Source: Shigella virus Moo19
Direction: 5' to 3' (one strand)
Sequence record: MZ358387
DNA: 64,000 nt
Shown one piece after another: positions 1 through 49,372 of this stretch; within the stretch, counting starts at the first letter, position 1, and every line of letters begins with the position of its first letter. A model generated the notes under the pieces. The model made no database searches, had not been told where the DNA came from, and saw only the letters and a program-made list of their open reading frames with translations. Made by a program: the position numbers and the translations under genes.

Positions 1-215
1 TGATGGTGACGATGTGATTCTTGCTGTACCCCGCCCAGTGGCTAGTGGCGGGACCGATTAACTAAAGGGCTTTCCACCTCCTTACCCGTTTAGCTAAAGG
101 CTAATAACTACCACAGTCAGGGTTCCTCGGCTCCTTTGACTTAAGACTGCAATCTTAAGTTTAACGGTACATAAGTACCTAGAGGGATGAACTGACCCGA
201 TACTGAAGTCGGTCA

Positions 216-252
216 GGGGCATAGTCGAGAGGCTATGCCCCATTTCTTTTTA
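216..252 (+). terminator. Stem-loop (9-bp stem ggggcatag/ctatgcccc, 8-nt loop) followed by T-rich tract, just upstream of first ORF
   Basis: Inverted repeat read directly; atttcttttta follows. Confidence 0.4.
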
Positions 253-263
253 TAGGAGCTATC

Positions 264-674
264 ATGGACATCTACGGTCTTGATATAGAAACACAGACAC
301 AAAAGAAAGAAGCTGACCCATACGTGATAGGTTCAGCTCAGTTCTTCGCCACCATCTTTGGTAACAAACACGCTATCCTTCTCCCAGATTGTGAAGAATC
401 CCACGAACTAGTAGGTTGCTGGCTGTTAGACAACATCCCACTAACCACTCGTATCATGAAGCAAGGTGAGACTATCATCTACAATCTGGAAGACTATGGA
501 ATACAAGAGGATGGTCAGTACACATGGATGCCACCTACTTACTTTATTCCACTGCCTGACTGGGAACTCATAGCTTCTCACGACGTATTCAAAAGGCAGA
601 TTGCTATCTACTTCCGTCCACGCCCTACCTGGAGAAAGAATCCATATGCAAGTCCAATTAATCTGTCGCAGTGA
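264..674 (+). CDS. Hypothetical early protein, member A of tandem small-ORF paralog family (SHELVGCWLL motif)
   Basis: ORF track; aggag RBS at 255-259; shares H-E-(V/L/F)-x-G-x-L-L motif with downstream ORFs. Confidence 0.4.
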   Translation: MDIYGLDIETQTQKKEADPYVIGSAQFFATIFGNKHAILLPDCEESHELVGCWLLDNIPLTTRIMKQGETIIYNLEDYGIQEDGQYTWMPPTYFIPLPDWELIASHDVFKRQIAIYFRPRPTWRKNPYASPINLSQ

Positions 675-1011
675 TAAAGATTCTGATGTAGTAAACGCAT
701 TAGAAATTCCATTCGACTTCTTTAGTCATGAGCTACACCTGAGCCAAGTAATCCTGGTTCCCTCCCTTGAGCATTATCATGAAGTTCAGGGGCAACTGTT
801 AATCAATGGTGTGACTGCTAAAGTAATCTGCATTCTTCCACCATCCCAATATCAGCCACCAGTTGGAAGTGTTCCTTATGCACTAGTCACTGATGACTAC
901 GTTGCTAAGTGTGACCCACTGCCTAATGTTGGTAAGTACAACGATACTTTAAATCTTACTTATTATTTCGAGAAGAAAGATGCAGCTACAACTAACGAGG
1001 TTCATGAGTAA
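646..1011 (+). CDS. Hypothetical early protein, paralog family member B (YHEVQGQLLINGVTAKV)
   Basis: ORF track 601-1011; first in-frame ATG beyond most of the overlap with upstream ORF is 646. Confidence 0.4.
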   Translation: MQVQLICRSDKDSDVVNALEIPFDFFSHELHLSQVILVPSLEHYHEVQGQLLINGVTAKVICILPPSQYQPPVGSVPYALVTDDYVAKCDPLPNVGKYNDTLNLTYYFEKKDAATTNEVHE

Positions 1012-1288
1012 CCCTCATAACTTATCTCTAGTGCACCCGGACGCAGAACCTTATCTATTAAGTGACGTTGGTTATGTACTCAGCGGTGAGTCCAAAGTCG
1101 TTATGCTTACCAGTGAGTCAGCTAACCTATTCCTCGTTGAGTGCATGATGCGGGGTGTCAATGCTGATATCACCCTCAAGGAACCAGGTGAGAAAGTATA
1201 TGGTGGCCTGCTCTGCTACTTAATACATAGTCCGCATGAGTATCCTGACTACGATAATGATGGTTATGTCTGGATAAGGAGGCCGTAA
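1004..1288 (+). CDS. Hypothetical early protein, paralog family member C (ends WIRRP)
   Basis: ORF track 980-1288; ATG 1004 overlaps upstream stop (ATGAGTAA). Confidence 0.45.
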   Translation: MSNPHNLSLVHPDAEPYLLSDVGYVLSGESKVVMLTSESANLFLVECMMRGVNADITLKEPGEKVYGGLLCYLIHSPHEYPDYDNDGYVWIRRP

Positions 1289-1563
1289 TGTTTGCCTATT
1301 TTGTACGCTCTACTTACGATGCCTACCACGGTATGCTATCCATCAAGTTAGAAGTAGGGCAACACTGGCCTACTTTTGAACCAGGAACAGCAGCTATTTG
1401 GGTTCATCCTGACATAGACTTTCATGAAGTACAGGGTGACCTGTTACTTCGGGGTAAGACAGCTAAGCTGATGGAATGTCCTCCGAACTATCGAATAAAA
1501 GAGAGTGGCATATTCATCCTGGCTCATAGTTACAGTAATGCACTGGAGTTACTGCGTCCATGA
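1288..1563 (+). CDS. Hypothetical early protein, paralog family member D (FHEVQGDLLLRGKTAKL, ends LLRP)
   Basis: ORF track; start overlaps upstream stop (TAATG). Confidence 0.5.
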   Translation: MFAYFVRSTYDAYHGMLSIKLEVGQHWPTFEPGTAAIWVHPDIDFHEVQGDLLLRGKTAKLMECPPNYRIKESGIFILAHSYSNALELLRP

Positions 1564-1922
1564 ATCTCTTCCTAATACCCCCTATGTCCTGTAATCCGCT
1601 TAAGCTGGTGGGCGAACAACCTACCTGGGATAGACTTGGCGTAACTAAAGAGACTGTCCTGTATGAACCAAGTGAAGAAGCACACGAGTTCATTGGTCAC
1701 TGTCTCATGATAAGTAGTGAAATACAGTTCAAGTCTCTTGCTGAACCAGTAGAAGTAAGGGAACAGGATAAGGTTTATGTAATAGGGCATCACTATCCTG
1801 ATGTATGCACCACCTTACAGGGCAGGCTTATCAGGCTTACTGATGAGAGTACCTGCATCCAGTGTACCTGCTATCACCCCTGCCCTTCTTCAAAGAAGGT
1901 TATCTACCCACTGGATATCTAA
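1560..1922 (+). CDS. Hypothetical early protein, paralog family member E (AHEFIGHCLM), Cys-rich C-terminus
   Basis: ORF track; ATGA overlap with upstream gene. Confidence 0.45.
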   Translation: MNLFLIPPMSCNPLKLVGEQPTWDRLGVTKETVLYEPSEEAHEFIGHCLMISSEIQFKSLAEPVEVREQDKVYVIGHHYPDVCTTLQGRLIRLTDESTCIQCTCYHPCPSSKKVIYPLDI

Positions 1923-2210
1923 ATGAATCTTACTAAGATACACGTTACTCCTACTAAGATGGTTAACTGTCCTATAACTAAAAAGTTATTTACTGTATCC
2001 AGTGACATACTCATTCTTGTACCAGACCTGGATAGCTTTCATGAAGTGAAAGGACAGGAGATGTTACTCAATAAGAAATGGGAAGTTCATCTACTTGAAC
2101 CAGGAAAGGAACTTAGGTGGCTGGGTATGTACAGTCCCTGGCATCTTAATACGGATAGCTACCGTCTTACCTTTACTGACCATATTGCTGTATATACTCC
2201 ACGCCCCTAG
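1923..2210 (+). CDS. Hypothetical early protein, paralog family member F (FHEVKGQEMLL, ends YTPRP)
   Basis: ORF track; tttcatgaagt nucleotide motif shared with members B and D. Confidence 0.5.
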   Translation: MNLTKIHVTPTKMVNCPITKKLFTVSSDILILVPDLDSFHEVKGQEMLLNKKWEVHLLEPGKELRWLGMYSPWHLNTDSYRLTFTDHIAVYTPRP

Positions 2211-2245
2211 CTCCTCAAACATAACTGCTTATAAAGAGTAACCTC

Positions 2246-2434
2246 ATGGATAATATTGCATTAAAAAACTACCGTACTGCTATTCAAGCCATAGAGCTTA
2301 TTAAAGCAGAGGTAGAAGTAACCTTTGGGTTACACGTAGGAACAGACCCAGAACCAGAAATAATGGTGGAAGCTTATAACATTGTTCTGGCTATACGTGC
2401 AGGTTATAACAGGCTATGCGAAGCATCTAAATAG
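2246..2434 (+). CDS. Hypothetical small protein (62 aa)
   Basis: ORF track only. Confidence 0.3.
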   Translation: MDNIALKNYRTAIQAIELIKAEVEVTFGLHVGTDPEPEIMVEAYNIVLAIRAGYNRLCEASK

Positions 2435-2480
2435 GAGGTATATAATTACCCTCTATCTAATATTTTTGCATGTCAAAATG

Positions 2481-2593
2481 GTGATAGCTACTTGTGATAG
2501 CTGTGGTGTGGCAGGGGCTACACCCTTACACGTTAACTACCCCCCCGGTATGTTGACTCATGGGTGTACTACCCTACCCCACCTTACACGTTA
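2481..2593. repeat. Intergenic direct repeats: gtgatagct x2 (2481, 2494) and ccttacacgtta x2 (2524, 2582), plus repeated ctaccc runs
   Basis: Read directly from sequence. Confidence 0.6.
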
Positions 2594-2595
2594 CA

Positions 2596-2608
2596 CATGC
2601 TCCGCATG
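2596..2608 (+). promoter_or_regulatory. Tri-loop hairpin catgc-TCC-gcatg (bottom strand GC-GGA-GC); candidate N4-type vRNAP early promoter hairpin
   Basis: Perfect 5-bp stem, 3-nt loop; same core as hairpins at 3584 and 7442; upstream of ORF 2652. Confidence 0.35.
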
Positions 2609-2651
2609 GTATGGACATGTCGTCCTTATCATTAACTATTGGAGCTATACA

Positions 2652-2972
2652 ATGACTACTACTGCTAACGTACGTATGACTGCTGGAACTTTACTGGGTA
2701 CTGTAAATGAAGCAGCTACTACTATTGCTGATACCTTTGGTACTGCAACTAAAGCTGTTGGTATGCTGAACTCATATGTCACTACTATGAGTGAGAAACA
2801 ACGTATTCGTACTAAATTGGAAATGCATACATTTACCAATAAATTAGCTGAAGAAACAGCTATGCAAGATACTATCCGTAAGAAAGCTATCGTAGAATTC
2901 TGCAAAGATGAAAAGAATGCTGAACTCTATAAAGCATCTTACGATGATGTAATGGCACTGTTATCTAAATAG
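2652..2972 (+). CDS. Hypothetical protein (106 aa)
   Basis: ORF track frame 2382-2972; ATG 2652 has ggag RBS 8 nt upstream; upstream part of track ORF is repeat-rich intergenic DNA. Confidence 0.4.
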   Translation: MTTTANVRMTAGTLLGTVNEAATTIADTFGTATKAVGMLNSYVTTMSEKQRIRTKLEMHTFTNKLAEETAMQDTIRKKAIVEFCKDEKNAELYKASYDDVMALLSK

Positions 2973-2981
2973 TAAAATAAC

Positions 2982-3010
2982 GGAAGACTCCTTGGAGTCT
3001 TCCTGTTTTA
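2982..3010 (+). terminator. Rho-independent terminator (9-bp stem ggaagactc/gagtcttcc, loop cttg, then tgtttta)
   Basis: Read directly. Confidence 0.6.
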
Positions 3011-3013
3011 AAG

Positions 3014-3032
3014 ATTAGATAGTCAATCTAAT
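3014..3032. promoter_or_regulatory. Palindrome attagat-agtca-atctaat containing 14-mer ttagatagtcaatc (second copy at 3529-3542)
   Basis: 7-bp inverted repeat read directly; lies just after a terminator and upstream of ORF 3063. Confidence 0.4.
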
Positions 3033-3062
3033 TTGAATAAATAGTTAAAAGAGAATCCTACT

Positions 3063-3209
3063 ATGAGCAAACTAAAAAACGCATTTATCCTGATTGTCAG
3101 TATCCTTGCACTTGTTACTTTGGTTTCCGTTCACATTGGAAAACCTCTGGTAAACACTGACTATGGTAATGGTCAAAAAGTAAAATCCATCCTGTTAGCG
3201 GATAAGTAA
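3063..3209 (+). CDS. Small putative membrane protein (48 aa, MSKLKNAFILIVSILALVTLVSV...)
   Basis: Hand-translated; hydrophobic N-terminal segment; below the 60-aa cutoff of the ORF track. Confidence 0.3.
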   Translation: MSKLKNAFILIVSILALVTLVSVHIGKPLVNTDYGNGQKVKSILLADK

Positions 3210-3276
3210 AAACCGCATCTAGAAACTGGGCTGTTCCACAGCTTACGGATACATTTCAACCAATTAGGAGGCATCC

Positions 3277-3492
3277 ATGAACGTAGAAAATATCCGTATA
3301 ATTGAGAATTGCTTTGGTGATAAACCAGTAGACCTCAGCAACGCAAGAAGGTCTACAGATGAAGAATACAGAGAGTTTTTATCCTTACTCGATGAATATC
3401 ATATGCAAGGGCATGTTGAATTACATGCCCATCTGCATAACTCAGGCTACTTCATGGATAAACTGGAAGCTGAGACAGGCTGTCCATTCTAA
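3277..3492 (+). CDS. Hypothetical protein (71 aa)
   Basis: ORF track; strong RBS aggagg upstream. Confidence 0.45.
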   Translation: MNVENIRIIENCFGDKPVDLSNARRSTDEEYREFLSLLDEYHMQGHVELHAHLHNSGYFMDKLEAETGCPF

Positions 3493-3499
3493 GTAAAGC

Positions 3500-3526
3500 A
3501 TTCCCTCTTAGGAGGGAATTAGCCAT
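3500..3526 (+). terminator. Terminator-like hairpin (attccctc-ttag-gagggaat)
   Basis: 8-bp inverted repeat read directly; weak T tract. Confidence 0.4.
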
Positions 3527-3528
3527 CT

Positions 3529-3547
3529 TTAGATAGTCAATCAAAAG
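3529..3547. promoter_or_regulatory. Second copy of 14-mer ttagatagtcaatc in an imperfect palindrome
   Basis: Identical 14-mer to 3015-3028. Confidence 0.4.
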
Positions 3548-3583
3548 TAGATTGTGATTCTACTTTAGTTCAACTTCAAAACC

Positions 3584-3600
3584 AAGACGCTCCGCGTCTT
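3584..3600 (+). promoter_or_regulatory. Tri-loop hairpin aagacgc-TCC-gcgtctt (7-bp stem); candidate vRNAP early promoter hairpin
   Basis: Perfect inverted repeat; GC-TCC-GC core shared with 2596 and 7442. Confidence 0.35.
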
Positions 3601-3705
3601 AAGGATGTATGAGTGCATCCAATCCTGTATGAAATCTTAGTCCTTTGTTTGGGTATGTTCACCGACGAGCGTACCCATAAATCACATTTATCTGGAGAGT
3701 ATAAA

Positions 3706-4089
3706 ATGTCTATTAAAACTTTTGGTCAAACTTTCGGTTCTGCTGTTGCTAACAAACCTGCTGCAACTGAACGTCCTAAAGCTAAATTCTGGCTGAACGT
3801 TGGCTATACAGCTAACGAAGGCACAGAAGAAGCTAAGTTCATCTCACTGCCTACTGGTATTCCACTGGATACTCAGGAGCATGTAAGCACTAAGTCCAGC
3901 AATGCTGACTTCCGTGCTATGCGTTGTGCTCAGAACGACCTGCTTGACCAGCTTCTGGCATTTGCAGAAGGTCTGGAACCAGGTGAAGAAGGTGTCATTC
4001 AACTTCAGGTTCAACTTCGTCGAGTCAAAGAAGAAGAAGCTGACATCCCAGCAGACGAGAATAAATATGCTCGTAAGCTGACTTTCTAA
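3706..4089 (+). CDS. Hypothetical early protein (127 aa)
   Basis: ORF track frame 3613-4089; ATG 3706 with ggagag RBS; followed by strong terminator. Confidence 0.5.
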
Positions 4090-4098
4090 TCACTAACT

Positions 4099-4127
4099 GG
4101 ACTCCCTTCGGGGAGTCCTTTTATTTT
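4099..4127 (+). terminator. Rho-independent terminator (ggactccc-ttcg-gggagtcc + T tract)
   Basis: Read directly. Confidence 0.7.
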
Positions 4128-4232
4128 AACTCAGCGATAAACTAAGTTTAACTTTTAGGAGCTTTTCGACGAAGAGTCACTAAAACTTAAACGTAAACAC
4201 AAGCAGATAACTTAGAGTAAGGAGTAATCAAG

Positions 4233-4418
4233 ATGCGTGTACTATGTAACCGTTATAATCCGACTAGGTTAATTAACATAATGGCTATGTATGGTAGCAA
4301 GATGGCTTATGATGCTCGTTGGCAGGTATCTGTAGAAGATAGAGATGGTCAGCATTATGACCACTACTTCACAGCTAAGCCAACTCGTAAACAAATCCGC
4401 AAACTTCACAAAGGATAA
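4233..4418 (+). CDS. Hypothetical protein (61 aa)
   Basis: ORF track; RBS taaggag upstream. Confidence 0.4.
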   Translation: MRVLCNRYNPTRLINIMAMYGSKMAYDARWQVSVEDRDGQHYDHYFTAKPTRKQIRKLHKG

Positions 4419-4422
4419 TGCT

Positions 4423-4575
4423 ATGAAGCTACTGGCAGAGATTCTATGTATTTTATTAATGATACTGCTGGTAGCTGCATTTCCGTGGCTATTAGCCGTA
4501 GGCGTAATTATTGGCATGTTCGCAGCCGGAGTGAATGATGCTCGTGGCAGAGATGAACCAGGTGGAGACGTATAA
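4423..4575 (+). CDS. Small membrane protein (50 aa, MKLLAEILCILLMILLVAAFPWLLAVGVIIGMF...)
   Basis: ORF track frame 4345-4575; ATG 4423 with aagga RBS; hydrophobic. Confidence 0.4.
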   Translation: MKLLAEILCILLMILLVAAFPWLLAVGVIIGMFAAGVNDARGRDEPGGDV

Positions 4576-4576
4576 C

Positions 4577-4657
4577 ATGGCCTATGTAATCATAGTTGTT
4601 GCGTGGTTAGCTGTTGGTGTATTCGTAGGTATGGCATTCGGGAGAATGGCTAAATGA
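4577..4657 (+). CDS. Possible tiny hydrophobic peptide (26 aa, MAYVIIVVAWLAVGVFVGMAFGRMAK)
   Basis: Hand-translated; tightly packed between neighbours; speculative. Confidence 0.2.
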   Translation: MAYVIIVVAWLAVGVFVGMAFGRMAK

Positions 4658-4845
4658 TTGAATTTAAGGTAGGCGATATAATTGAACCAATAGAGGGATT
4701 CCCACAGTGGAAAGGTATAACAATACTTGAGTGGAATCCTATTACTCGTGATGCCTCAGTTAAGCTTAAATCCGGTACTGTTATACATGGTTTTAATCTA
4801 GACCCTGACTATGGAGTTGAATTCAAATGCGTAAGTCCATCTTAA
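4654..4845 (+). CDS. Hypothetical protein (63 aa)
   Basis: ORF track; ggag RBS. Confidence 0.4.
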   Translation: MIEFKVGDIIEPIEGFPQWKGITILEWNPITRDASVKLKSGTVIHGFNLDPDYGVEFKCVSPS

Positions 4846-4989
4846 TGGGAACCAGAGAAGATGTTATTAAGCGTCGTGCTAAACAAGTTACTGCTCAATC
4901 AGTGCCTGTTACTGGTTATAGTAGAACATATAACAGTAAGCCTAAGCAGTATATCGTAACTTTCAATCATCCTTGTATTCAATAATAGT

Positions 4990-5017
4990 GGCTCCCATTA
5001 GGGAGCTTCTATTTTTT
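4990..5017 (+). terminator. Terminator (gctccc-atta-gggagc + T tract)
   Basis: Read directly. Confidence 0.5.
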
Positions 5018-5031
5018 ATTTAGAATAGTTA

Positions 5032-5062
5032 GTCCCGAAGGGACAATCTTACGAAGTAAGAT
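5032..5062 (+). promoter_or_regulatory. Two adjacent GAA tri-loop hairpins (gtccc-GAA-gggac; atcttac-GAA-gtaagat)
   Basis: Perfect inverted repeats read directly; function unknown. Confidence 0.3.
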
Positions 5063-5095
5063 TAGACATAGATAGATATAGGAGAAACTATTAAA

Positions 5096-5404
5096 TTGTT
5101 AAATGAAATCATCTGTATTCCACAGAATAAGGCTCGCATTGCAGATAGGAATATTCGTATTCATCTGCCAATGCCATTAGCTAACCCATTCAGTAAGTCT
5201 GAAAGACTGAACCAGGATGATGTAGATGTGGCTTATGAGGCATATCTGCGTAATCGTCTTATCTCAGGCGATAAGCTAATCACTGCTGAAATGGAAAAGA
5301 TTGCAGGCTTTGTCATGGACAAAACAGGCAAACCTGTAGGACTGATAGGCAATGAGCCAGAGGTAAATGTAATACGTAAACTTATTATGGAGGCTATTGG
5401 ATAA
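5096..5404 (+). CDS. Hypothetical protein; N-terminal half resembles DUF4326-type motif (LANPF...AYEAYL) seen in ORF 6220
   Basis: ORF track (non-ATG start at 5096 implied); start uncertain. Confidence 0.35.
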   Translation: MLNEIICIPQNKARIADRNIRIHLPMPLANPFSKSERLNQDDVDVAYEAYLRNRLISGDKLITAEMEKIAGFVMDKTGKPVGLIGNEPEVNVIRKLIMEAIG

Positions 5405-5625
5405 TGATTCTTAATCCTAATTACCGTACATGTGAAATATGTGGTAAACACAGGGCTAAGGGAAATCATAATAAGTGTTCACGTATACTACAGAAGCAAC
5501 GTAATAATGCTGAACAAGCATTAATATTAGAGAACCAGAGGAAACACGAAGAGTACATCTCTGTTCGTAAGGCTTCTCTAAACAAATTTAGAAGGAAACC
5601 ATTTATACGTATAAGTAAAGGTTAA
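5404..5625 (+). CDS. Hypothetical basic protein with CxxC...H...C (possible zinc-binding)
   Basis: ORF track; composition. Confidence 0.35.
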   Translation: MILNPNYRTCEICGKHRAKGNHNKCSRILQKQRNNAEQALILENQRKHEEYISVRKASLNKFRRKPFIRISKG

Positions 5626-5627
5626 CT

Positions 5628-5912
5628 ATGAAAGTAATCACCTATCCTACTCATAAAATAGCACTCTACATGGGACAAAAAGTAGAAGTTCCATTATGGG
5701 TTAAATATTTAGCAGTACTTCCAATGATGTATGGTCATTCAAGTTCTGCACTAATTGGCTTCAGCCATAAACCCAAATTCACTAAGACTGGTATTTGGAA
5801 AATATCATCTCAGTATAAGAACACTAAGCAGGAACAAATAGGCATAGTCCGTAACTTTGCTCCTGCTAAAAATGAAATTGAAGCTACTCTAAGTGAGGTT
5901 CTATTACCATGA
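5628..5912 (+). CDS. Hypothetical protein (94 aa)
   Basis: ORF track. Confidence 0.4.
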   Translation: MKVITYPTHKIALYMGQKVEVPLWVKYLAVLPMMYGHSSSALIGFSHKPKFTKTGIWKISSQYKNTKQEQIGIVRNFAPAKNEIEATLSEVLLP

Positions 5913-6223
5913 CTACCATCGTAGTATTGCATGACACCACATTCAAAGATGTGGATAAGATGATGAACAATATAGACTATGTTGCTCAGCATTCTAAAGC
6001 ATTCAATGGGGAGTTCACTATTTATTGTGAACCAGAATCTCCATTGGCTCCTGTATTAAAAGAAGCAGGGCTTCCGTTCAGTACTACTGACTTCCCAGAA
6101 GAACCTGACTTCGTTATCTCATTCATCTACGATTTACACGACGGTTCTAAAGCCAGTGAACTGGCAATGAACCAGTGGAAGTCTCGCCGTCCTGTATGGC
6201 CTTTCCAGGTACTGAAACCATGA
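5909..6223 (+). CDS. Hypothetical protein (104 aa)
   Basis: ORF track; ATGA overlaps with neighbours. Confidence 0.4.
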   Translation: MTTIVVLHDTTFKDVDKMMNNIDYVAQHSKAFNGEFTIYCEPESPLAPVLKEAGLPFSTTDFPEEPDFVISFIYDLHDGSKASELAMNQWKSRRPVWPFQVLKP

Positions 6224-6600
6224 AGACTATCTCATTAGGTGACGATACCAATGCTTTGCTGGGTGTAGCTGCACGTCCAATCATCATTGTTAATAAACAT
6301 CATGGTAAACCGGGTGAGTATATTGGACGTGGTTCACCATTGGGTAATCCATACCCAATTGGTGATAAATACAACCGTCAACAAGCTATTGCTATGTATC
6401 GTGTCTGGCTGCAAGAACAGATTGATAAAGGTAATCCAGTTGTACTGGATGAACTTAATCGTCTGGGTAATAAAGCCATTGACGAAAAAGGACTGGCCTT
6501 ACAGTGCTTCTGTTATCCGAAACCATGTCATGGTGAGGTTATTAAAGAGAAGCTCGTAGAGGCTATGTACAACTACTTTGTGGAGAATCCAAATGAGTAA
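6220..6600 (+). CDS. DUF4326-like protein (GRGSPLGNPY ... CFCYPKPCHGEV)
   Basis: Motifs GNP and C-x-C-x-P-x-P-CHG recalled as DUF4326 signature; ATG 6220 overlaps upstream stop. Confidence 0.5.
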   Translation: MKTISLGDDTNALLGVAARPIIIVNKHHGKPGEYIGRGSPLGNPYPIGDKYNRQQAIAMYRVWLQEQIDKGNPVVLDELNRLGNKAIDEKGLALQCFCYPKPCHGEVIKEKLVEAMYNYFVENPNE

Positions 6601-6787
6601 GCAATGTAAATGTGGTAAAGGCTATGTATCCCAATGGGATGATAAGTGTGGTAAATGCCGAACCAAGAAGGAACAGCGTGACCATCAAATAGCTTTAAGG
6701 GACTTAGACCTGTATATCGCAGGTCGTCCAGAATTTAATATGACTCCACAAGAAGCCTATAAAGGCTTAAGGAAACTGTACAAATGA
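6593..6787 (+). CDS. Small zinc-ribbon-like protein (CKCGKG...CGKC)
   Basis: ORF track frame; ATG 6593 with ggag RBS; two Cys pairs. Confidence 0.4.
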   Translation: MSKQCKCGKGYVSQWDDKCGKCRTKKEQRDHQIALRDLDLYIAGRPEFNMTPQEAYKGLRKLYK

Positions 6788-7167
6788 AAGAAATATTCGT
6801 ATTCGGTTCTAATCTGGCTGGTGTACACGGTGCTGGTGCAGCTAAGACTGCATATAAGAAGCACGGTGCTCGTTGGGGTATGGGCGTAGGCCATTATGGT
6901 TGCAGCTATGCAATTCCAACTAAAGACCAGAACATCAAAACAATGGAGTTGGTTGATATCGCTGTATTTGTATCTGCCTTCATCCTGTATGCAGCAGCAC
7001 ACCCAGAGTGGGACTTCAAAGTAACACGAGTAGGTTGTGGGCTGGCTGGCCTGTCTGATAAAGACATGGCATTCATGTTCTTACCTGCAACAGGTAATGT
7101 CATGTTTGATGAAGCATGGAAACCTTATTTAGGTGATACCTATAACTACTGGGGTACATTCGAATGA
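6784..7167 (+). CDS. Gly-rich Rossmann-like motif protein (FVFGSNLAGVHGAGAAKTA...GCGLAGL); possible nucleotide-binding (SLOG/macro-like?)
   Basis: Motif only; family assignment uncertain. Confidence 0.35.
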   Translation: MKEIFVFGSNLAGVHGAGAAKTAYKKHGARWGMGVGHYGCSYAIPTKDQNIKTMELVDIAVFVSAFILYAAAHPEWDFKVTRVGCGLAGLSDKDMAFMFLPATGNVMFDEAWKPYLGDTYNYWGTFE

Positions 7168-7436
7168 CCTATGAAGAATTATGGGCTGCTCAAGTAAGAA
7201 GTAAGGCGAGAGCCTTTGCTCATGTCTACAGCACATTGCAGCATCTTATTAAAAGCAGAACCAAAGCTGGACATATACATGGTTACTACAAAGAAGATTG
7301 TATTCCCGATGGTGACTACCTATGGGATAAAAGAATCCGTCACGAGAGTGACATTATAAAAGTGAATATTGCTATTCATTCATACCCACCAAGGGGTAAT
7401 CGCTACCTATCTATTCACTTTTATACAAAGCGTTAG
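7164..7436 (+). CDS. Hypothetical protein (90 aa)
   Basis: ORF track. Confidence 0.4.
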   Translation: MTYEELWAAQVRSKARAFAHVYSTLQHLIKSRTKAGHIHGYYKEDCIPDGDYLWDKRIRHESDIIKVNIAIHSYPPRGNRYLSIHFYTKR

Positions 7437-7441
7437 GTAAT

Positions 7442-7460
7442 AGCTGCTCCGCAGCTTTTG
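7442..7460 (+). promoter_or_regulatory. Tri-loop hairpin agctgc-TCC-gcagct followed by TTTT; candidate vRNAP promoter hairpin or short terminator, 30 nt upstream of RNAP II genes
   Basis: Perfect 6-bp stem, TCC loop; same GC-TCC-GC core as 2596 and 3584. Confidence 0.35.
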
Positions 7461-7488
7461 GTCATTAATCATATTTAGGAGATATGCG

Positions 7489-8307
7489 ATGTACTCATCT
7501 ATTGAACATCAGAAGCAACTGGAAACTCTGTTTAACAAGAATCAACTAATTCCTCGTATGAGGAAAGAGTTCGAGGACTCCGAAGAAATCCAATTCACTA
7601 AGTATTTTGAGCATATTGGCATCGACCCCAAACTGGGTATTGATGCAATGGTGCAAATTGCTCTGCATAAACGTGCTGACATTCCTACTATGGTTGGCTC
7701 ACTCATGAGTCACAGTCAGGATGCTCAGTACATAGCAGACACTCTGCTTAAGATGGCAGAGCACGACTGCTTTGACTTCGACCCAAGTATCGATAAGTTC
7801 ATCGTCATCTATGAAATCAGTGATGATGTACAACTGGAACTGGAAGCATTCCAGTATCCACTGCCTATCGTCAGTGAACCGAGAGAGGTTAAAGATAACC
7901 GTGGCTCAGGTTACTGGAATACCAAAGGCAGTATCATCCTCAAGAAGAACCACCATGAAATGGATGTGTGTCTCGACCACATTAACCGTATGAACAATCA
8001 ACGACTCAGCATCAACTGGGACGTTGCCAAGTTCGTCAAAAACTCATGGGCTAACCTGGATAAACCTAAAGAAGGGGAATCCCGTCAGGACTTTCAGAAG
8101 CGTGTACGTGCATTCGAGAAATACGACCGTACAGCAAAAGACGTTATGGAACTGGTGACTAAAGAAGGTAACAACTTCTCACTTGACCATAAGTATGACA
8201 AGCGTGGACGCACCTACTCACAGGGCTACCACATTAACTATCAAGGTACTAGCTGGAATAAAGCTGTTATCGAGTTCGCTGATAAGGAGTTGGTAAACGA
8301 TGAGTAG
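7489..8307 (+). CDS. Phage RNA polymerase II small subunit (N4 gp15-like)
   Basis: 272 aa; lies upstream of a T7-like RNAP C-terminal-half homolog; N4-like organisation; strong RBS aggag. Confidence 0.55.
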   Translation: MYSSIEHQKQLETLFNKNQLIPRMRKEFEDSEEIQFTKYFEHIGIDPKLGIDAMVQIALHKRADIPTMVGSLMSHSQDAQYIADTLLKMAEHDCFDFDPSIDKFIVIYEISDDVQLELEAFQYPLPIVSEPREVKDNRGSGYWNTKGSIILKKNHHEMDVCLDHINRMNNQRLSINWDVAKFVKNSWANLDKPKEGESRQDFQKRVRAFEKYDRTAKDVMELVTKEGNNFSLDHKYDKRGRTYSQGYHINYQGTSWNKAVIEFADKELVNDE

Positions 8308-8587
8308 GAAAGAATTTAAAGCTATTGCTCAAACCAGTGGTGGTATGGGCACATTAGCACTAGGAGAAGACGGTACAGTACTGTACACGGCTTACGACGT
8401 ATTATCTGGCAAAACAGTAACAGTATGTCTGTTCTTTGATGTAAATACTTACATGTCACTGGAGAATGCTTTCTCAGATTTCAGCAATGTTATGCGTAAT
8501 CGTGACCAGAAAGCTGACTTAACTCCGGCTGACAAAGACTTCCAGGCAATCCTCAATGACCTGAAGAAACCAGGCAAACTTCATTAA
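8300..8587 (+). CDS. Hypothetical protein between the two RNAP II subunit genes
   Basis: ORF track. Confidence 0.4.
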   Translation: MSRKEFKAIAQTSGGMGTLALGEDGTVLYTAYDVLSGKTVTVCLFFDVNTYMSLENAFSDFSNVMRNRDQKADLTPADKDFQAILNDLKKPGKLH

Positions 8588-8636
8588 TTAACCCATATGC
8601 GTGTTCCATACAGGAACCAGATGCAGGAGTAATAAA

Positions 8637-9854
8637 ATGCAAACTTTTACCGCTAAACAGTACCTGGCTATCGATATCGCTAACAACTTTGGTCTGGATA
8701 AGAAGACCTGGGATGAGCGTTTGGCCTGGTTCGATGAGAACAAAGACAACCTCATGAACCAGTTAGAAGCAGCAGAGGAACCTGCTCTGTATTATGCAGG
8801 CGTTAAAGCCTATGAAGACATGCTGGCTGGTAAGCCTATTGGTTATACCATTGCACTGGATGCTACTGCATCTGGTCTGCAATTACTGGCATGTCTGACT
8901 GGTGACCGTAAGGCTGCTCAGTTGTGTAACGTAGTGAACTACTATGGTAGCGAAGGCAAGGCTCGTCGTAGCGATGCCTACACCGTTATCTACCGTACCA
9001 TGCTGGAAGCCGTAGGTCAGTCTTCTCGTGTTAAACGTGATGACTGTAAGCAGGCTGTAATGACTGCATTCTATGGCTCAGAAGCTAAGCCTAAAGAAGT
9101 GTTCGGTGAAGGTATTCTGTTGAAGACCTTTGAACACGTAATGGGTATCGAAGCACCTGGCCCGTGGGAACTGAACAAGTTCTATCTGCAATGTGGTAAC
9201 CCGGATGCAACCTCATATTTATGGGTTCTGCCGGATAACTTCCATTGTCAGATTAAGGTAATGGTTGACGAAGTACAGACCATTAACTTTATGAACAAGC
9301 CATATGACATCATTCGCAAAGTACAGGGTACTGAAGAGAAGACTCGTATGCTCTCTGCTAATACCACTCACTCAATTGATGGAATGGTAGTGCGTGAGAT
9401 GCTGCGTCGTTGTAACTATGATGCTGACCTGATTACCTATGTAAAACAGCTTTGCTATGGCGTACAGGAATCAAATGTATTCCTGCCAGAAAACGCTGAA
9501 ATGGTGCATGAGTTATGGAACCACTATGAACGTAGTGGTTTCCTGTCCATGCGTATCTGCGATTATCTGGATGCAGGCTCCATCGCTCTGGTTGACCGTC
9601 AGGTCATCCTTGAGATGCTGGAGACTCTGCCTAAGAAGCCATTCAAAGTACTGACTGTACATGACTGCTTCCGTTGCCATCCTAATTATGGCAATGACCT
9701 GCGTCGTCAATACAATCAGATTCTGTCTGACATTGCTAAATCCAACCTGCTGTCATTCATTCTGTCTCAGGTACTGGGACAAGAGTTCACTGCTGGTAAG
9801 CTGGACAATGACATGTGGAAAGATGTCTTAGACGCTGAGTACGCATTAAGCTAA
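8637..9854 (+). CDS. Phage RNA polymerase II large subunit, T7-like single-subunit RNAP catalytic half (N4 gp16-like)
   Basis: Motifs DATASGLQ (motif A-like), KQAVMTAFYGS (motif B-like), TVHDCF (motif C-like); ATG 8637 with aggag RBS (track ORF starts 8601). Confidence 0.75.
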   Translation: MQTFTAKQYLAIDIANNFGLDKKTWDERLAWFDENKDNLMNQLEAAEEPALYYAGVKAYEDMLAGKPIGYTIALDATASGLQLLACLTGDRKAAQLCNVVNYYGSEGKARRSDAYTVIYRTMLEAVGQSSRVKRDDCKQAVMTAFYGSEAKPKEVFGEGILLKTFEHVMGIEAPGPWELNKFYLQCGNPDATSYLWVLPDNFHCQIKVMVDEVQTINFMNKPYDIIRKVQGTEEKTRMLSANTTHSIDGMVVREMLRRCNYDADLITYVKQLCYGVQESNVFLPENAEMVHELWNHYERSGFLSMRICDYLDAGSIALVDRQVILEMLETLPKKPFKVLTVHDCFRCHPNYGNDLRRQYNQILSDIAKSNLLSFILSQVLGQEFTAGKLDNDMWKDVLDAEYALS

Positions 9855-9857
9855 TAT

Positions 9858-9895
9858 GAGCCTCATACCTTCGGGTATGGGGCTTATTTTTTTCG
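9858..9895 (+). terminator. Rho-independent terminator (catacc-ttcg-ggtatg extended, then ttattttttt)
   Basis: Read directly. Confidence 0.6.
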
Positions 9896-9911
9896 AATTG
9901 AGGACACAACT

Positions 9912-10733
9912 ATGCCTGAGTTAAAAGTTGCTTTTAACAAAGACACCTATGTAGCTACCGTACTGGATGCCAGTGGTAGCGTTCCGAGTGGTTCTGTGAA
10001 CGTAGGTACTTTCTTCCATCCTGATGAGACTTACCCTGATAGTTATGTTATCTATCATGGTGTTCGTGAACTCCTGTATAAGCGTTCTGAAGTTGACCCG
10101 GCACAACCAGGCTTCTGGCCTGAGAACATTACCAACATGCAAGCTGTTACCATCGATAACAAGGCTACTGCACGTCTGGTACTGAATACCTCCCTACCTC
10201 GTGTAGTATCTACCATCGAAGGTGGTAAGGTTACTCTGTCTGTTGTTGCTCTGGGTGGTAAGGCTCCTCTTAAATACAAGTGGGAGTTCCGTGCACCTAA
10301 TGCTTCAACCTGGACTGCTGTATCTGGGCAGACTACTGCTAATCTGGTTCTGGATAATATCGATGCTGATAAAGCAGGTGAGTATAAAGTCACCGTTACC
10401 GATGCTGCCGGAACCAGTGTAGATAGTACTGCTCTGGTAGCTGTGGGTGCTTATCCACCACCAGCACTGACGGGCATTAAGGCTACGCCTACTTCCCTGT
10501 CTCTGTCTGTAGCTACTGACGCTGCTGGTAAAACTGTAGCTCTGTCTGCTATCCCGACTGATGCTGAACTGGGTACATTGTCTATTAAGACTGCTCCAGA
10601 TTCTGCTCGTGCTACTGCTACTATTTCTGGTTCTACTCTGACTGTTAAACCAGTGGCTGCTGGTGCTGCAACTTCTGTTGTAGTAACCAACGGTAAAGTT
10701 GATGTGACTATCACTATCAACGTTGCAGCATAA
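9912..10733 (+). CDS. Ig-like domain protein; probable capsid decoration protein (N4 gp17-like)
   Basis: Ig-like sequence features (GEYKVTVTDAAG; Big_2-like C-terminal repeats); position after RNAP II genes. Confidence 0.5.
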   Translation: MPELKVAFNKDTYVATVLDASGSVPSGSVNVGTFFHPDETYPDSYVIYHGVRELLYKRSEVDPAQPGFWPENITNMQAVTIDNKATARLVLNTSLPRVVSTIEGGKVTLSVVALGGKAPLKYKWEFRAPNASTWTAVSGQTTANLVLDNIDADKAGEYKVTVTDAAGTSVDSTALVAVGAYPPPALTGIKATPTSLSLSVATDAAGKTVALSAIPTDAELGTLSIKTAPDSARATATISGSTLTVKPVAAGAATSVVVTNGKVDVTITINVAA

Positions 10734-10754
10734 GCTGATAGTTTTGTTTGGCTA

Positions 10755-10784
10755 AAGCCCTCCTTGTGAGGGCTTTCTTGTATC
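10755..10784 (+). terminator. Terminator-like hairpin (aaagccctc-cttgt-gagggcttt)
   Basis: Read directly; T tract weak. Confidence 0.5.
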
Positions 10785-10799
10785 TATAGGAGAGTAAAA

Positions 10800-11114
10800 G
10801 TGACTAACAAATTACGTGTATGGCATATCCCGCAAGTGCCAATGAAAGCATTCTTTGTAGAATGCGATAGCATTCAGGAAGCTGTTAAAATTCGTAGTGC
10901 ACTGGCAGATTACGACTTGTTCCAGTATGAGAACAATGTCAAAGGTGATTACTGTAACGCCAGCGGTATTCATATCTGGGATGAAACTCTGTCTGACCAA
11001 GACCTCATCGATATGGAACTAGACGACCGTTGGGTTGACTGGTTCTATGAAGATGAAAATGAATACTTCGATGACCCAGAAGAATATCTGGAATGGCTTG
11101 CTACGCAATCCTGA
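10800..11114 (+). CDS. Small acidic protein (C-terminal half D/E/W/Y-rich); candidate DNA-mimic-type host-interference protein
   Basis: ORF track (GTG start with aggag RBS); composition; bracketed by terminators. Confidence 0.45.
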   Translation: MTNKLRVWHIPQVPMKAFFVECDSIQEAVKIRSALADYDLFQYENNVKGDYCNASGIHIWDETLSDQDLIDMELDDRWVDWFYEDENEYFDDPEEYLEWLATQS

Positions 11115-38840: not shown

Positions 38841-38872
38841 AAAGCCCCTCTAATGAGGGGCTTTTTTATTTT
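38841..38872. terminator. Bidirectional terminator (aaagcccctc-taat-gaggggctt flanked by A-run and T-run) between convergent + and - transcription units
   Basis: Read directly; T/A tracts on both sides. Confidence 0.7.
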
Positions 38873-41800
38873 AGTTTACCAGATTCATCCAAGGGTTGAG
38901 GTTATGAGCACGTAAGCCCTGACCCAATCCGATAGAGTAATCCAGTCTACCATCAGCAGCAGCCGAGAACAGGTTATCCTGTAATGGCAGACCAACGTTA
39001 CCAAACATGGTAGGAGTTGGAGCCAGCATAGCCATAGCTGCATGAACAGGGTTATTACGAATCATGGACACTGCAACTTTAGTAGAACGAATCTTAAAGT
39101 TATAGAACCACATCAGACCCATGCTTTCCATGTAACCACGGAAACGACCCGGCAGACGGTCATAGTTAATGAACTCTTCGGTAACACGACCCAGAGCTTC
39201 TTCCTTACTCTTACCTTTACGCTTAGTCAGTTCATCATAGATGATTGCTTTAGCAATAAAGTCAGAGTACTCAACCGTCTTCTGGATACCCTGGAACAGA
39301 GCAGTATCCTTAGTGATAAGTGCATAACGACCAGCAGTTTGCAGCTTCTTAGGCAGCTTATCTGCTAAACGCTGCATGTACTCCTGTACCTTACCATCCG
39401 GGATTAACAGGTCATCACGAGAGATACCAGCATCAGCAATAGAAGAGAACTCACCAGCTTCCAGCAAAGGCCAGATACTCATACGCTTATAGCTATCATT
39501 GATGGACTGAATCTCAGCTTTCAGTTTACGAGCCTGGTTCGGATTAGTAGTTGCACGAAGTTCTGCTTCAGCATCAACCTGGCGAAGACGAGACTTCATA
39601 TACTGGTTAATCTCAGCAGTCTTCTGAGGGATACCTTTAGCAATATCCTTAACTGGAACACCACGGGCAACCATCTGATAGAGGTTAGCCAGGAAGTTCA
39701 CAGCAGGAACCACGAGAGACTTGACCACGATTAAGGTCTTAGCCTCACGTACAACCGTCTGAGTGATATTCTCACCCTGCATAAAGTATTTGTATGCACG
39801 GTTGCCAAATACGCCCAGCATTGCTTTCTTGAAGGTATCCAAAGTCTCAGGTGACCAACGAGAGTTACCAGTCCATACATCACCAACAGAAGCAGCACGA
39901 TAACCAAGTGCATCATTCAACATGTCACGACGTACCCACAGTTCACCATTACCAAACAGTGACTCAGCTTTCTGACGAGTTTCTGCATTCATCAGACGCA
40001 TAGCATCAGCAGTAACTGGGTCAAGTTTAGAACCAAGAAGGTTAATGTACTGGCTCTTATTGCTGGTAGAATCTGCCATGTCCTTCTCGTACATAGCGTG
40101 AAGATTTTCAATCAGAGCATCGTTAAACTTCTGGGCTTTAGCTTCTTCTACCTGACGACCTCGCCATACACCAATTGCTTTAGCAAGGTTATCCTCACCA
40201 GCAATGTGAGTCAGCATGTTAGGGTCAATAGAGTGCTCATAAGCAACCACACGACCATTGCCATCATAGATAGGCATCAGTGGTTCATTACCACGTTCAC
40301 CCTTCGCCAGAGCTTTGGTGATACGGTCAACGGAAGGCTTGTCAGTAATACGACCAGCAACCATTGTTCCCATTGTGAAGCCAGTACCAACATCCACACC
40401 ACCAGCAGTATTACGAACGTTCTGGAGAATACCCTGTGAGTATGGAGCACGAGCAGCAACCGGGCTGAAGTAGTAACCACGACTACGAGTACGTTCACCA
40501 GAGCTACCCTGATAACCAGCAATACGAGTGAATGACTTCTCACTCAGTTCGTTAAACTGGCTGTCTTCTGCAACAATCAGGTTAACACCCTGCTTAGTCT
40601 CAGAAGGAATGTAGCCTTTGTAGTGGTTCAAACGAGCACGGTCATCATTCTGTGCTTTACGTTTCTCTTCCACACGCTGGCCTACCAGATAGGAAGTGAC
40701 AAAGTCCATACCTTCGGTTTCAGTCTGAGCCAGGGAAGCTAATGCCTCACGGTCAGCCTGACTCATTGCTTCGATGGCATACAGAGTAATCAGCTTGTCT
40801 AAGGTGTCCACATCAACGGTAGATTTAACGCTGGTACGCTCACCTAACAGACGGGAGATTGCCTCAGCATTACGCAGCAGGTTGTTACCGACAGTACCAT
40901 TAATCATGTACTGAGCCAGTTGCTTAGACTTACGGTTAATCAAAGGCCAGTTACGTCCTGCCTGATTCTGGAGGTCAGCTTCCAGCTTATTAACCAGCTT
41001 ATCCATTTCTTTCTGTGAAGACAGCAGGTCACGAATTTCACCCAGACTCATGGTGTCACGCAGTACAGCAAGGTCAGTTTTACCCATACCAGTGTGCATA
41101 GCTTTCCACTCTGCATCAGTCAGCTTACGGCTGAACTTAGAAGCAATAGTGGTAGGCAGATGCTCACGGAATTGCTGACGGTCAGCCTGTACCTGAGAGC
41201 GAACAGCTTTAATCATGTCATAGACAGAAGCATTCGACTTAGTACGACCTACGATGTCATTAACCAGGTCATAGAAAGGTTGCCATGCTTTTCCCTGGTT
41301 CATTGCAGCCATAACACCCTGTGCAACTTTCTCACCGTTCTTCTCAGTAGCAATAGCAGCTACCAATTGAGCAGCATGAGCAGTTGCCTTAACCAGTGGG
41401 TTCTTAGCATTAGCAGCAACATCACGAGCAGTATCCAGTGTGGCATCAGCCAGACGTTCTACACCATCAACAATATATTGGTTAGCACGGTCAATCATAT
41501 TCCCAGTTGGGGTAGCAACAGAGTCATAGAAGGACTGAGCATTCAGGCTGGATTCCATAATAGTTTCTGCCAGAGCATCAATACCTTCCTGAACGTTAGT
41601 TGCTTTGGTATCACCAGCAACACGCTTGTTCAGGCTATCCATTGCAGCTACGCCAATGTTAGTCAGCATTGCATCAATAGTATTACCGGATGCTTTATCT
41701 GCTTTCATAACAGGCATGTCAGTCAGTACGTTACGTACCTCTTCGCTTACCATTGCCAGACCAACAAAGGTAGGCAGTAAGGAAGAACGACCCTGAGCAT

Positions 41801-49310: not shown

Positions 49311-49372
49311 AGCTTGTTTCCTGTTCAAACTTATATCTATAAGAGAACTCACTGTACATTAAGTGAGGGTAA

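Follow-up and report, generated by a model that had tools for sequence, protein, structure and literature searches.

A predicted minimal macrodomain encoded beside the RNA polymerase II genes of N4-like phages as a candidate ADP-ribose eraser

What does a phage gain from a 127-residue, glycine-rich protein encoded just upstream of its own RNA polymerase genes? We addressed this question for the open reading frame (ORF) at 6784-7167 of Shigella virus Moo19 (record MZ358387), of which a stretch of 64,000 nucleotides was analyzed, hereafter the window. The initial annotation had likened the glycine-rich motifs of the protein to those of macrodomains or of SLOG/DprA-like folds. Profile and fold comparisons indicate that it is very probably an ADP-ribose-binding macrodomain, probably with enzymatic activity. 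Regarding its role, we tentatively favor an eraser of DNA-linked ADP-ribose acting against host defenses of the DarT2 type, a reading to which we give somewhat less than an even chance. The gene and the motifs on which the argument turns are as follows.

6769-6774, + strand: Shine-Dalgarno-like AAGGAA, 9 nucleotides 5' of the ATG, read from the sequence
6784-7167, + strand, stop codon included: ORF for the predicted 127-residue N4 gp14-like minimal macrodomain, ATG start (ORF list)
6805-6843, + strand: macro loop 1 region, residues 8-20 (GSNLAGVHGAGAA), placed by hhalign against DarG and by family conservation
6913-6927, + strand: IPTKD, residues 44-48, with candidate catalytic Lys47 (codon 6922-6924), placed by hhalign against DarG
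7033-7053, + strand: macro loop 2 (diphosphate-binding loop), GCGLAGL, residues 84-90, placed by alignment with BT1257 and DarG

The ORF itself lies exactly at the initially annotated position, on the + strand, and encodes 127 residues that include the glycine-rich motifs. The motif FVFGSNLAGVHGAGAAKTAYKKHG spans residues 5-28. The start shares ATGA (6784-6787) with the stop of the preceding ORF, which ends at 6787, and the stop shares ATGA (7164-7167) with the start of the next. The protein matches NCBIfam NF049995, 'A1S_2505 family phage non-structural protein' (A1S_2505_Nterm), over model positions 1-109 with 147 bits against a cut-off of 45 (E 2.2e-43), and phrog_2072 ('unknown function') with an E value of 7.5e-57; with clusters drawn at 90% identity, 6,475 homologues reach E<=1e-3, and 5,109 are counted among the representatives of 50%-identity clusters. 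Given these scores and the thousands of relatives, 6784-7167 is certainly a real gene. By sequence, its product is a full-length member of the NF049995/PHROG 2072/'N4 gp14-like protein' family, the last being the name used in older annotations, and an ordinary member of a large, named and uncharacterized family whose macro nature has been noted before. GenBank names for homologues include 'macro domain protein', 'Macro domain Poa1p family' and 'ADP-ribosylglycohydrolase' (PHROG 6572). Pfam has no model for the protein, and its Macro families did not match; a 5-FTHF_cyc-lig hit (15.9 bits, E 0.013) stays below its cut-off of 27 bits and was attributed to chance. The label 'ADP-ribosyltransferase' in Rhodobacter phages RcPeripeteia (L003:4001-4369) and RcPescado sits on the macro homologue itself and was set aside as a mis-annotation. 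In two Klebsiella phage records, the features under the match are labeled 'Phage protein Gp49' and 'tail spike protein'.

The link to macrodomains emerged from profile-profile comparison of the gp14 family (hhalign) with a reference of five aligned sequences (Mtb DarG, Taq DarG, BT1257, T4 Tk.4/AdfM and human TARG1), in which both DarG sequences were checked against PDB entries and TARG1 by its numbering only. The match reached 90.4% probability with an E value of 1.4e-6 over 100 columns. Asn10 is paired with DarG Asn22, G16-A17-G18 with DarG G28-K29-G30, P45-T46-K47 with DarG P78-T79-K80, and G84-C85-G86 with the loop-2 glycines of the reference macrodomains; within loop 2, GCGLAGL aligns with 'PRIGCGLAGG' of BT1257 and 'LGVGNGG' of DarG. 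Asn22 and Lys80 are active-site residues of Taq DarG2, and their equivalents in PhiKZ AdfM are Asn23 and Lys78 (PMC13309987), so that Asn10 and Lys47 occupy, by alignment, the positions of the DarG2/AdfM-type active-site pair. Significance was reached only with the five-sequence reference and not by sequence alone: PDB searches with the single protein or the family profile returned only E values above 0.2, headed by hepatitis E virus (HEV) capsid and aspartyl-tRNA synthetase (AspRS), with TARG1 and BT1257 at about 0.6-1.3, and with T4 AdfM as the sole reference, hhalign of the gp14 family fell short of significance and paired no more than the 'prIGxG' motif.

The predicted structure is a three-layer α/β/α fold with a mixed central sheet, a glycine-rich loop 1 (GxG) and a diphosphate-binding loop 2, and its closest structural neighbor is DarG. 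Structure prediction and profile comparison had been proposed initially as the check on the fold, and both upheld its macro part, while the SLOG/DprA-like part failed on fold and sequence models alike. The fold is nonetheless a reduced one. The first strand of the protein corresponds to DarG residues 16-22, so that the canonical N-terminal β-strand ahead of the 'N...GxG' strand is missing, with no counterpart to DarG residues 1-15 in the alignment, and the protein carries an extra C-terminal helix and strand at residues 110-124 (strand 121-124).

Conservation follows the proposed active site, as both glycine-rich motifs fall on the most conserved columns of the family. Among 270 members, Ser9, Asn10, Gly13, His15, Gly18, Pro45 and Gly84 are essentially invariant; the loop 1 region contributes the invariant Ser9-Asn10, Gly13, His15 and Gly16/Gly18 (Asn10, codon 6811-6813, is ~100% conserved), and G84, C85 and G86 of loop 2 are nearly invariant. 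Lys47 is kept in 116 of 120 close and 130 of 150 distant members (87-97%).

The identity of residue 47 also divides phage from bacterial relatives. Lysine is found in 74 of 80 viral loci versus 29 of 78 bacterial loci (Fisher p 5.8e-14), and methionine takes its place in 47 of the 78 bacterial loci, mostly from Bacteroidales and Acinetobacter. Fusion partners match this division: the Lys type prevails in fusions with NADAR (4/5), SLOG/DprA-like (4/5) and YAcAr-SLOG (8/8) domains, whereas all five fusions with an ARH-type ADP-ribosylglycohydrolase are Met-type, several of which adjoin a Nudix-NrtR regulator. Other relatives are fused to DUF4326 (one case), an Acb2/Tad1 hairpin or DUF488-N3. Because the window protein is Lys-type and the ARH and NrtR contexts are confined to the Met-type bacterial subfamily, these contexts say nothing about it, and we dropped them as functional context. 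For the Met-type subfamily itself, the ARH fusion and NrtR neighbor suggest a housekeeping role in ADP-ribose/NAD recycling; the Bacteroidales fusions of ARH (PF03747) and macro modules with Met for Lys47 are found at loci L024:3071-4000, L036, L037, L051 and L060 (see also L051:2063-2884). The Acinetobacter A1S_2505-type proteins (262-296 residues) have a conserved 131-residue C-terminal extension without a Pfam match, and in eight Acinetobacter genomes (loci L061, L070, L073, L075, L076 and L080-L082) the gene lies divergently beside uvrB, a setting that is chromosomal and not that of a prophage, although NCBIfam calls the family 'phage non-structural protein'. Immediate bacterial neighbors are heterogeneous, with 94 Pfam families among 127 proteins, and the families listed for these 127 include no recurring ADP-ribosyltransferase (ART), DarT, SIR2, TIR or RES partner. 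To judge from these gene contexts, the gp14 family consists of putative orphan erasers and not of antitoxins.

The window belongs to an N4-like coliphage (Schitoviridae, Enquatrovirinae/Gamaleyavirus-like), with Escherichia phage Jgk1 as its closest DNA match (82.7%). The surroundings of the macro gene comprise the following features, with the virion RNA polymerase ORF farther downstream.

4990-5007, + strand: terminator-like hairpin, 5' end of the apparent transcription unit (pattern scan)
5909-6223, + strand: ORF of unknown function
6220-6600, + strand: DUF4326 gene, 126 residues from the ATG at 6220, with a C-x-C-x-P-x-P-C-H-G motif (Pfam PF14216, E 7e-20)
6593-6787, + strand: small Cys-rich ORF (CxC...CxxC), overlapping the macro start by ATGA (ORF list, phrog_13804)
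7164-7436, + strand: 90-residue ORF, function unknown, its start sharing ATGA with the macro stop (ORF list, phrog_24093)
7489-9854, + strand: N4-type RNA polymerase II (RNAP II) subunit genes, 7489-8307 and 8601-9854 (Pfam RNA_pol match, relatives' annotations)
9856-9887, + strand: strong terminator-like hairpin (14 pairs plus T-run), directly 3' of the RNAP II large-subunit gene (pattern scan)
38871-49352: virion RNA polymerase ORF, 3,493 residues

The macro gene sits in a run of small + strand ORFs, three junctions of which are ATGA overlaps. The pattern scan found no strong + strand terminator between 5007 and 9856, and since the only strong + strand hairpins nearby are those at 4990-5007 and 9856-9887, the macro gene is probably co-transcribed with the RNAP II subunit genes in one transcription unit. 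In N4, the injected virion polymerase transcribes the RNAP II genes early, and the macro gene would thus be early too. Gene order around the macro gene matches that of phage Mimir124. Between the RNAP II subunit genes lies a 95-residue ORF of unknown function (8300-8587) without a Pfam match; in relatives such as Mimir124 and Moonfish, this position is taken by an HNH homing endonuclease. Over positions 1-11000 of the window, the 20 terminator-like hairpins exceed the 6.7 +/- 2.3 of shuffled sequences and the 14 sigma-70-like promoters fall short of the corresponding 25.7 +/- 5.7, and strong + strand hairpins at 216-241, 2982-3003, 4099-4118, 4990-5007 and 9856-9887 split the left arm into short transcription units.

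DUF4326 belongs to a rhodanese-phosphatase clade that is found in fusions with domains of the SLOG, Macro and NADAR types (PMC9503650), and the neighbor at 6220-6600 may work in the same pathway as the macro gene. The apparent operon holds two DUF4326 paralogues, at 5096-5404 (~1.4 kb upstream of the macro gene) and 6220-6600; the former is 21% identical to the latter, lacks the motif Cys and His residues and may be catalytically inactive. Mimir124 likewise carries two phrog_464 genes. Behind each DUF4326 gene comes a short ORF rich in Cys, with the look of a zinc ribbon (5404-5625, CEICGK...NKCSR; 6593-6787, CKCGKG...CGKCR), and this repeated pairing suggests a duplicated two-gene module. Modeling of a phosphatase-like fold for DUF4326 suffered from a shallow alignment (84-95% identity) and gave a pLDDT of 54.1, and the model was not used. 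Farther along, the products of the middle region (9912-38599) include a dCTP deaminase-like/dUTPase protein, ThyX, an N4 gp17-type superinfection exclusion protein, an Imm-type superinfection immunity protein, a DUF2201 metallopeptidase/VWA pair and two HNH_3 endonucleases; no NAD- or ADP-ribose-related domain was found among its 33 scanned ORFs. Nor did we find an ART, SIR2 or TIR domain in ten early ORFs, another set of seven ORFs and these 33 middle-region ORFs, a scan covering ORFs of 90 residues or more outside the late/structural region.

Is the gene an occasional passenger or a regular part of such genomes? By tblastn, a gp14-like gene is present in 449 phage records versus 479 for the RNAP II large subunit, which served as a proxy for N4-like phages, totals being compared rather than matched record by record. 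Counts for RNAP II and macro gene by host genus are 101/100 in Pseudomonas, 69/66 in Escherichia, 17/17 in Achromobacter, 14/14 in Pectobacterium, 10/10 in Stenotrophomonas, 29/24 in Klebsiella, 21/17 in Erwinia and 107/62 in Vibrio. Some matches lie in phages that are not N4-like (jumbo, Casjensviridae, BPP-1-like, crAss-like and 157-kb Vibrio phages), and the set of seven strict N4-like hallmark genes does not include the macro gene. Taken together, these data indicate a gene that is near-core in most N4-like lineages and mobile across phage groups. Pseudomonas N4-like phages also appear to have a second, different macro-like protein of 139-146 residues, with a query-normalized TM-score (TMq) of ~0.59 and 12-13% identity (BFVD models C8ZKB8 of Pseudomonas phage LUZ7 and A0A2S1PG17 of phage 98PfluR60PP).

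Among the crAss-like phages, giant proteins contain a gp14-like module with 34-35% identity and a TMq of 0.81-0.84 (Foldseek, viral models). In cr112_1 the module lies in-frame at about residues 81-202 of a 2,562-residue 'putative RNA polymerase' (L164:2126-2491); in cr50_1 it is just N-terminal to an SF1/Pif1-like helicase domain within a protein of more than 4,700 residues (L165:9001-9372); and the module-bearing protein of cr116_1 is annotated 'ART-PolyVal-like'. Through probable co-transcription in N4-like phages and fusion in crAss-like phages, two unrelated phage groups thus associate the module with a phage-encoded RNA polymerase.

Several of these observations speak for an active hydrolase that removes ADP-ribose from phage nucleic acid, thymidine-modified single-stranded DNA being the target with the best precedent: DarG is the closest structural neighbor, the catalytic pair aligns, lysine is enriched in the phage copies, and relatives are fused to NADAR and to a helicase. 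NADAR is an enzyme class that erases guanine-linked DNA ADP-ribosylation, and the Lys-type NADAR fusions mirror the separate AdfN and AdfM of T4. On the reading that we tentatively favor, the two glycine-rich loops would form a cleft that binds ADP-ribose, and the Asn10/Lys47 pair would hydrolyze the bond at ribose C1'', as in DarG2, TARG1 and phage AdfM. Both binding and hydrolysis are plausible from the alignment. Given the early RNAP II unit, the enzyme would be made within minutes of infection and without a cognate toxin. Its plausible target is the ADP-ribose that host DarT2-type ADP-ribosyltransferases put on thymidines of single-stranded phage DNA, where, unless removed, it would block phage replication and transcription, and with the catalytic pair conserved, an anti-defense role is plausible.

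A number of observations weigh against this reading. Near-universal presence in N4-like phages is unusual for an accessory counter-defense gene, and in a few close relatives Lys47 is replaced by Leu. The PADLOC DarG model (PDLC02990) did not match the window protein, whereas it matched T4 AdfM at 1.3e-9, and the fold similarity is only moderate, hardly above that to protein-directed viral macrodomains. The SLOG and DUF4326 associations, moreover, fit processing of small molecules equally well.

This last point leads to a possible, if unlikely, explanation in which the macrodomain hydrolyzes or traps small ADP-ribose derivatives, rather than acting on DNA, and so blunts NAD-based host immunity or toxicity. 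The candidate ligands comprise O-acyl-ADP-ribose, ADP-ribose-1''-phosphate (a product of RES-type toxins or of RNA repair) and signals derived from TIR, with DUF4326 as a possible partner. The closest structural class also holds Poa1p (an ADP-ribose-1''-phosphatase) and TARG1/OARD1 (a deacylase of O-acyl-ADP-ribose), and A1S_2505 is modeled in the literature as such a deacylase. Fusions with YAcAr/SLOG, DUF4326, the Acb2/Tad1 hairpin and DUF488-N3 fit this picture, as do the DUF4326 genes of the same operon, two genes and ~1.4 kb upstream; an Aravind-lab survey holds that phage Macro, NADAR, SLOG and Nudix proteins mainly counter diffusible ADP-ribose derivatives. However, only ~4-7 of 80 viral loci have DUF4326 three genes or fewer from the macro gene, the ARH and NrtR contexts indicative of ADP-ribose metabolism are Met-type and bacterial, not those of the phage Lys type, and the lysine of the DarG/TARG1 mechanism is kept specifically in the phage copies. 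Pseudomonas phage Ab09 has a gp14-like gene, yet deletion of gp59-61 renders it sensitive to Thoeris I/II and CBASS; the macrodomain is therefore not sufficient against the signals of these systems, and we down-weighted an anti-Thoeris role.

Rather improbable, to our minds, is removal of mono-ADP-ribose from proteins or RNA, placed there by host defense ARTs (mRNA- or protein-targeting systems, for instance) or by a phage-delivered ART. The gene would then supply the eraser to a matching writer, the two together controlling host takeover or early transcription. No ART, SIR2 or TIR domain was found in the ORFs of the window scanned, those of the early and middle regions included, and none recurs among the 127 bacterial neighbors; a self-encoded writer is unlikely given the lack of ART-like domains in the scanned early and middle-region ORFs.

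The association with RNA polymerases invites a more speculative idea, which we regard as a long shot: the gp14-like clade may represent a 'mini-macro' of distinct topology, with the first strand lost and a replacement helix and strand at the C terminus, that serves as a near-obligatory accessory of phage RNA polymerases rather than as a dispensable counter-defense gene. Such a protein could keep the single-stranded promoter DNA, the transcription bubble or the nascent RNA free of ADP-ribose, or could process an ADP-ribose- or NAD-derived adduct arising from this unusual mode of transcription. We think it improbable that the protein is non-catalytic, retaining the macro fold as an ADP-ribose reader or sponge or as a structural partner of RNAP II or the early transcription machinery. 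In favor of a non-catalytic role, the domain is truncated, lacking the first canonical strand and having 127 residues against ~150, Lys47 is dispensable in some members, nearly all N4-like phages have the gene, close beside those for RNAP II, and sponging is a common phage strategy. Against this role stand the invariance of Asn10, His15 and both glycine loops and the high conservation of Lys47 in phage copies, an enzyme-like pattern, and repeated fusion to hydrolases such as NADAR likewise fits an enzyme. A SLOG/DprA-like Rossmannoid nucleotide-binding protein can be dismissed, since superficial likeness of the glycine motifs is its sole support, SLOG domains being found fused or next to relatives, and fold prediction refutes it.

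What is new here is the significant profile link of the gp14 family to the DarG/TARG1/AdfM class, the mapping of the Asn/Lys pair with its conservation statistics, and the division into phage Lys-type and bacterial Met-type proteins along with the fusion partners that follow it. Also new are the near-core status of the gene among N4-like phages, its probable co-transcription with RNAP II there, and the module inside crAss-like giant proteins. That phages counter DarTG with orphan erasers of DNA ADP-ribosylation, AdfN and AdfM, is a recent insight. Should the DNA-eraser reading prove true, it would add a very large family (~5,100 clusters at 50% identity) that Pfam Macro and PADLOC DarG do not see; should small ADP-ribose derivatives be the substrate, the family would instead become a candidate for the inhibition of NAD-based immunity. 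Either outcome would allow annotation of several hundred phage genomes. Most N4-like phages carry the family, and phages of this group already serve in therapy against Pseudomonas, E. coli and Klebsiella. The Lys type (mostly phages) versus the Met type (mostly bacteria) offers a simple, testable marker of functional divergence.

How does the window protein compare with characterized macrodomains? A search of a literature library found no experimental work on N4 gp14, on Schitoviridae macrodomains or on DarTG versus N4-like phages. The Acinetobacter namesake A1S_2505, a knockout of which is viable, differs by its 131-residue C-terminal extension, its uvrB context and Leu or Met in place of Lys47, whereas the phage proteins are stand-alone and Lys-type. 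The Aravind-lab survey treats phage Macro/NADAR/SLOG/DUF4326 associations in general terms and favors small-molecule substrates. From the DarG2 macrodomain (the DarTG2 antitoxin; T. aquaticus 5M3E, M. tuberculosis 5M3I), the window protein departs more strongly, with only ~19% identity, no N-terminal strand, ~25 fewer residues, an extra C-terminal helix and strand and no DarT-binding C-terminal domain. Window scans and bacterial neighbors showed no DarT adjacent to the macro gene, and a stand-alone 127-residue protein does not fit the definition of a DarTG antitoxin. Human TARG1/OARD1 (C6orf130) and Bacteroides BT1257 (2FG1/2AFC) share the 'PT-K' lysine position (TARG1 Lys84), and their loop 2 is near-identical ('RIGCGLAGG' in BT1257 and 'RIGCGLD' in TARG1 versus 'RVGCGLAGL'), with a TMq of 0.60-0.66 and E values that are not significant by sequence alone. 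Ala88 appears to fall at the position of the second catalytic residue of TARG1, Asp125, as in BT1257. Phage AdfM (anti-DarT factor macro; PhiKZ gp104, T4 Tk.4) forms a separate sequence family: T4 Tk.4 matches DarG, BT1257 and Poa1p directly, which the gp14 family does not, and Foldseek gives the window protein a TMq of only 0.61 against a T4-like Tk.4. Even so, AdfM resembles gp14 in being an orphan, toxin-less phage macrodomain of the DarG/TARG1/Poa1p class, and that of PhiKZ shares the Asn/Lys pair with the window protein. Such orphan phage macrodomains protect against DarTG2, as seen for T4 Tk.4/AdfM and for chimallivirus AdfM including PhiKZ gp104 (the latter in PMC13309987).
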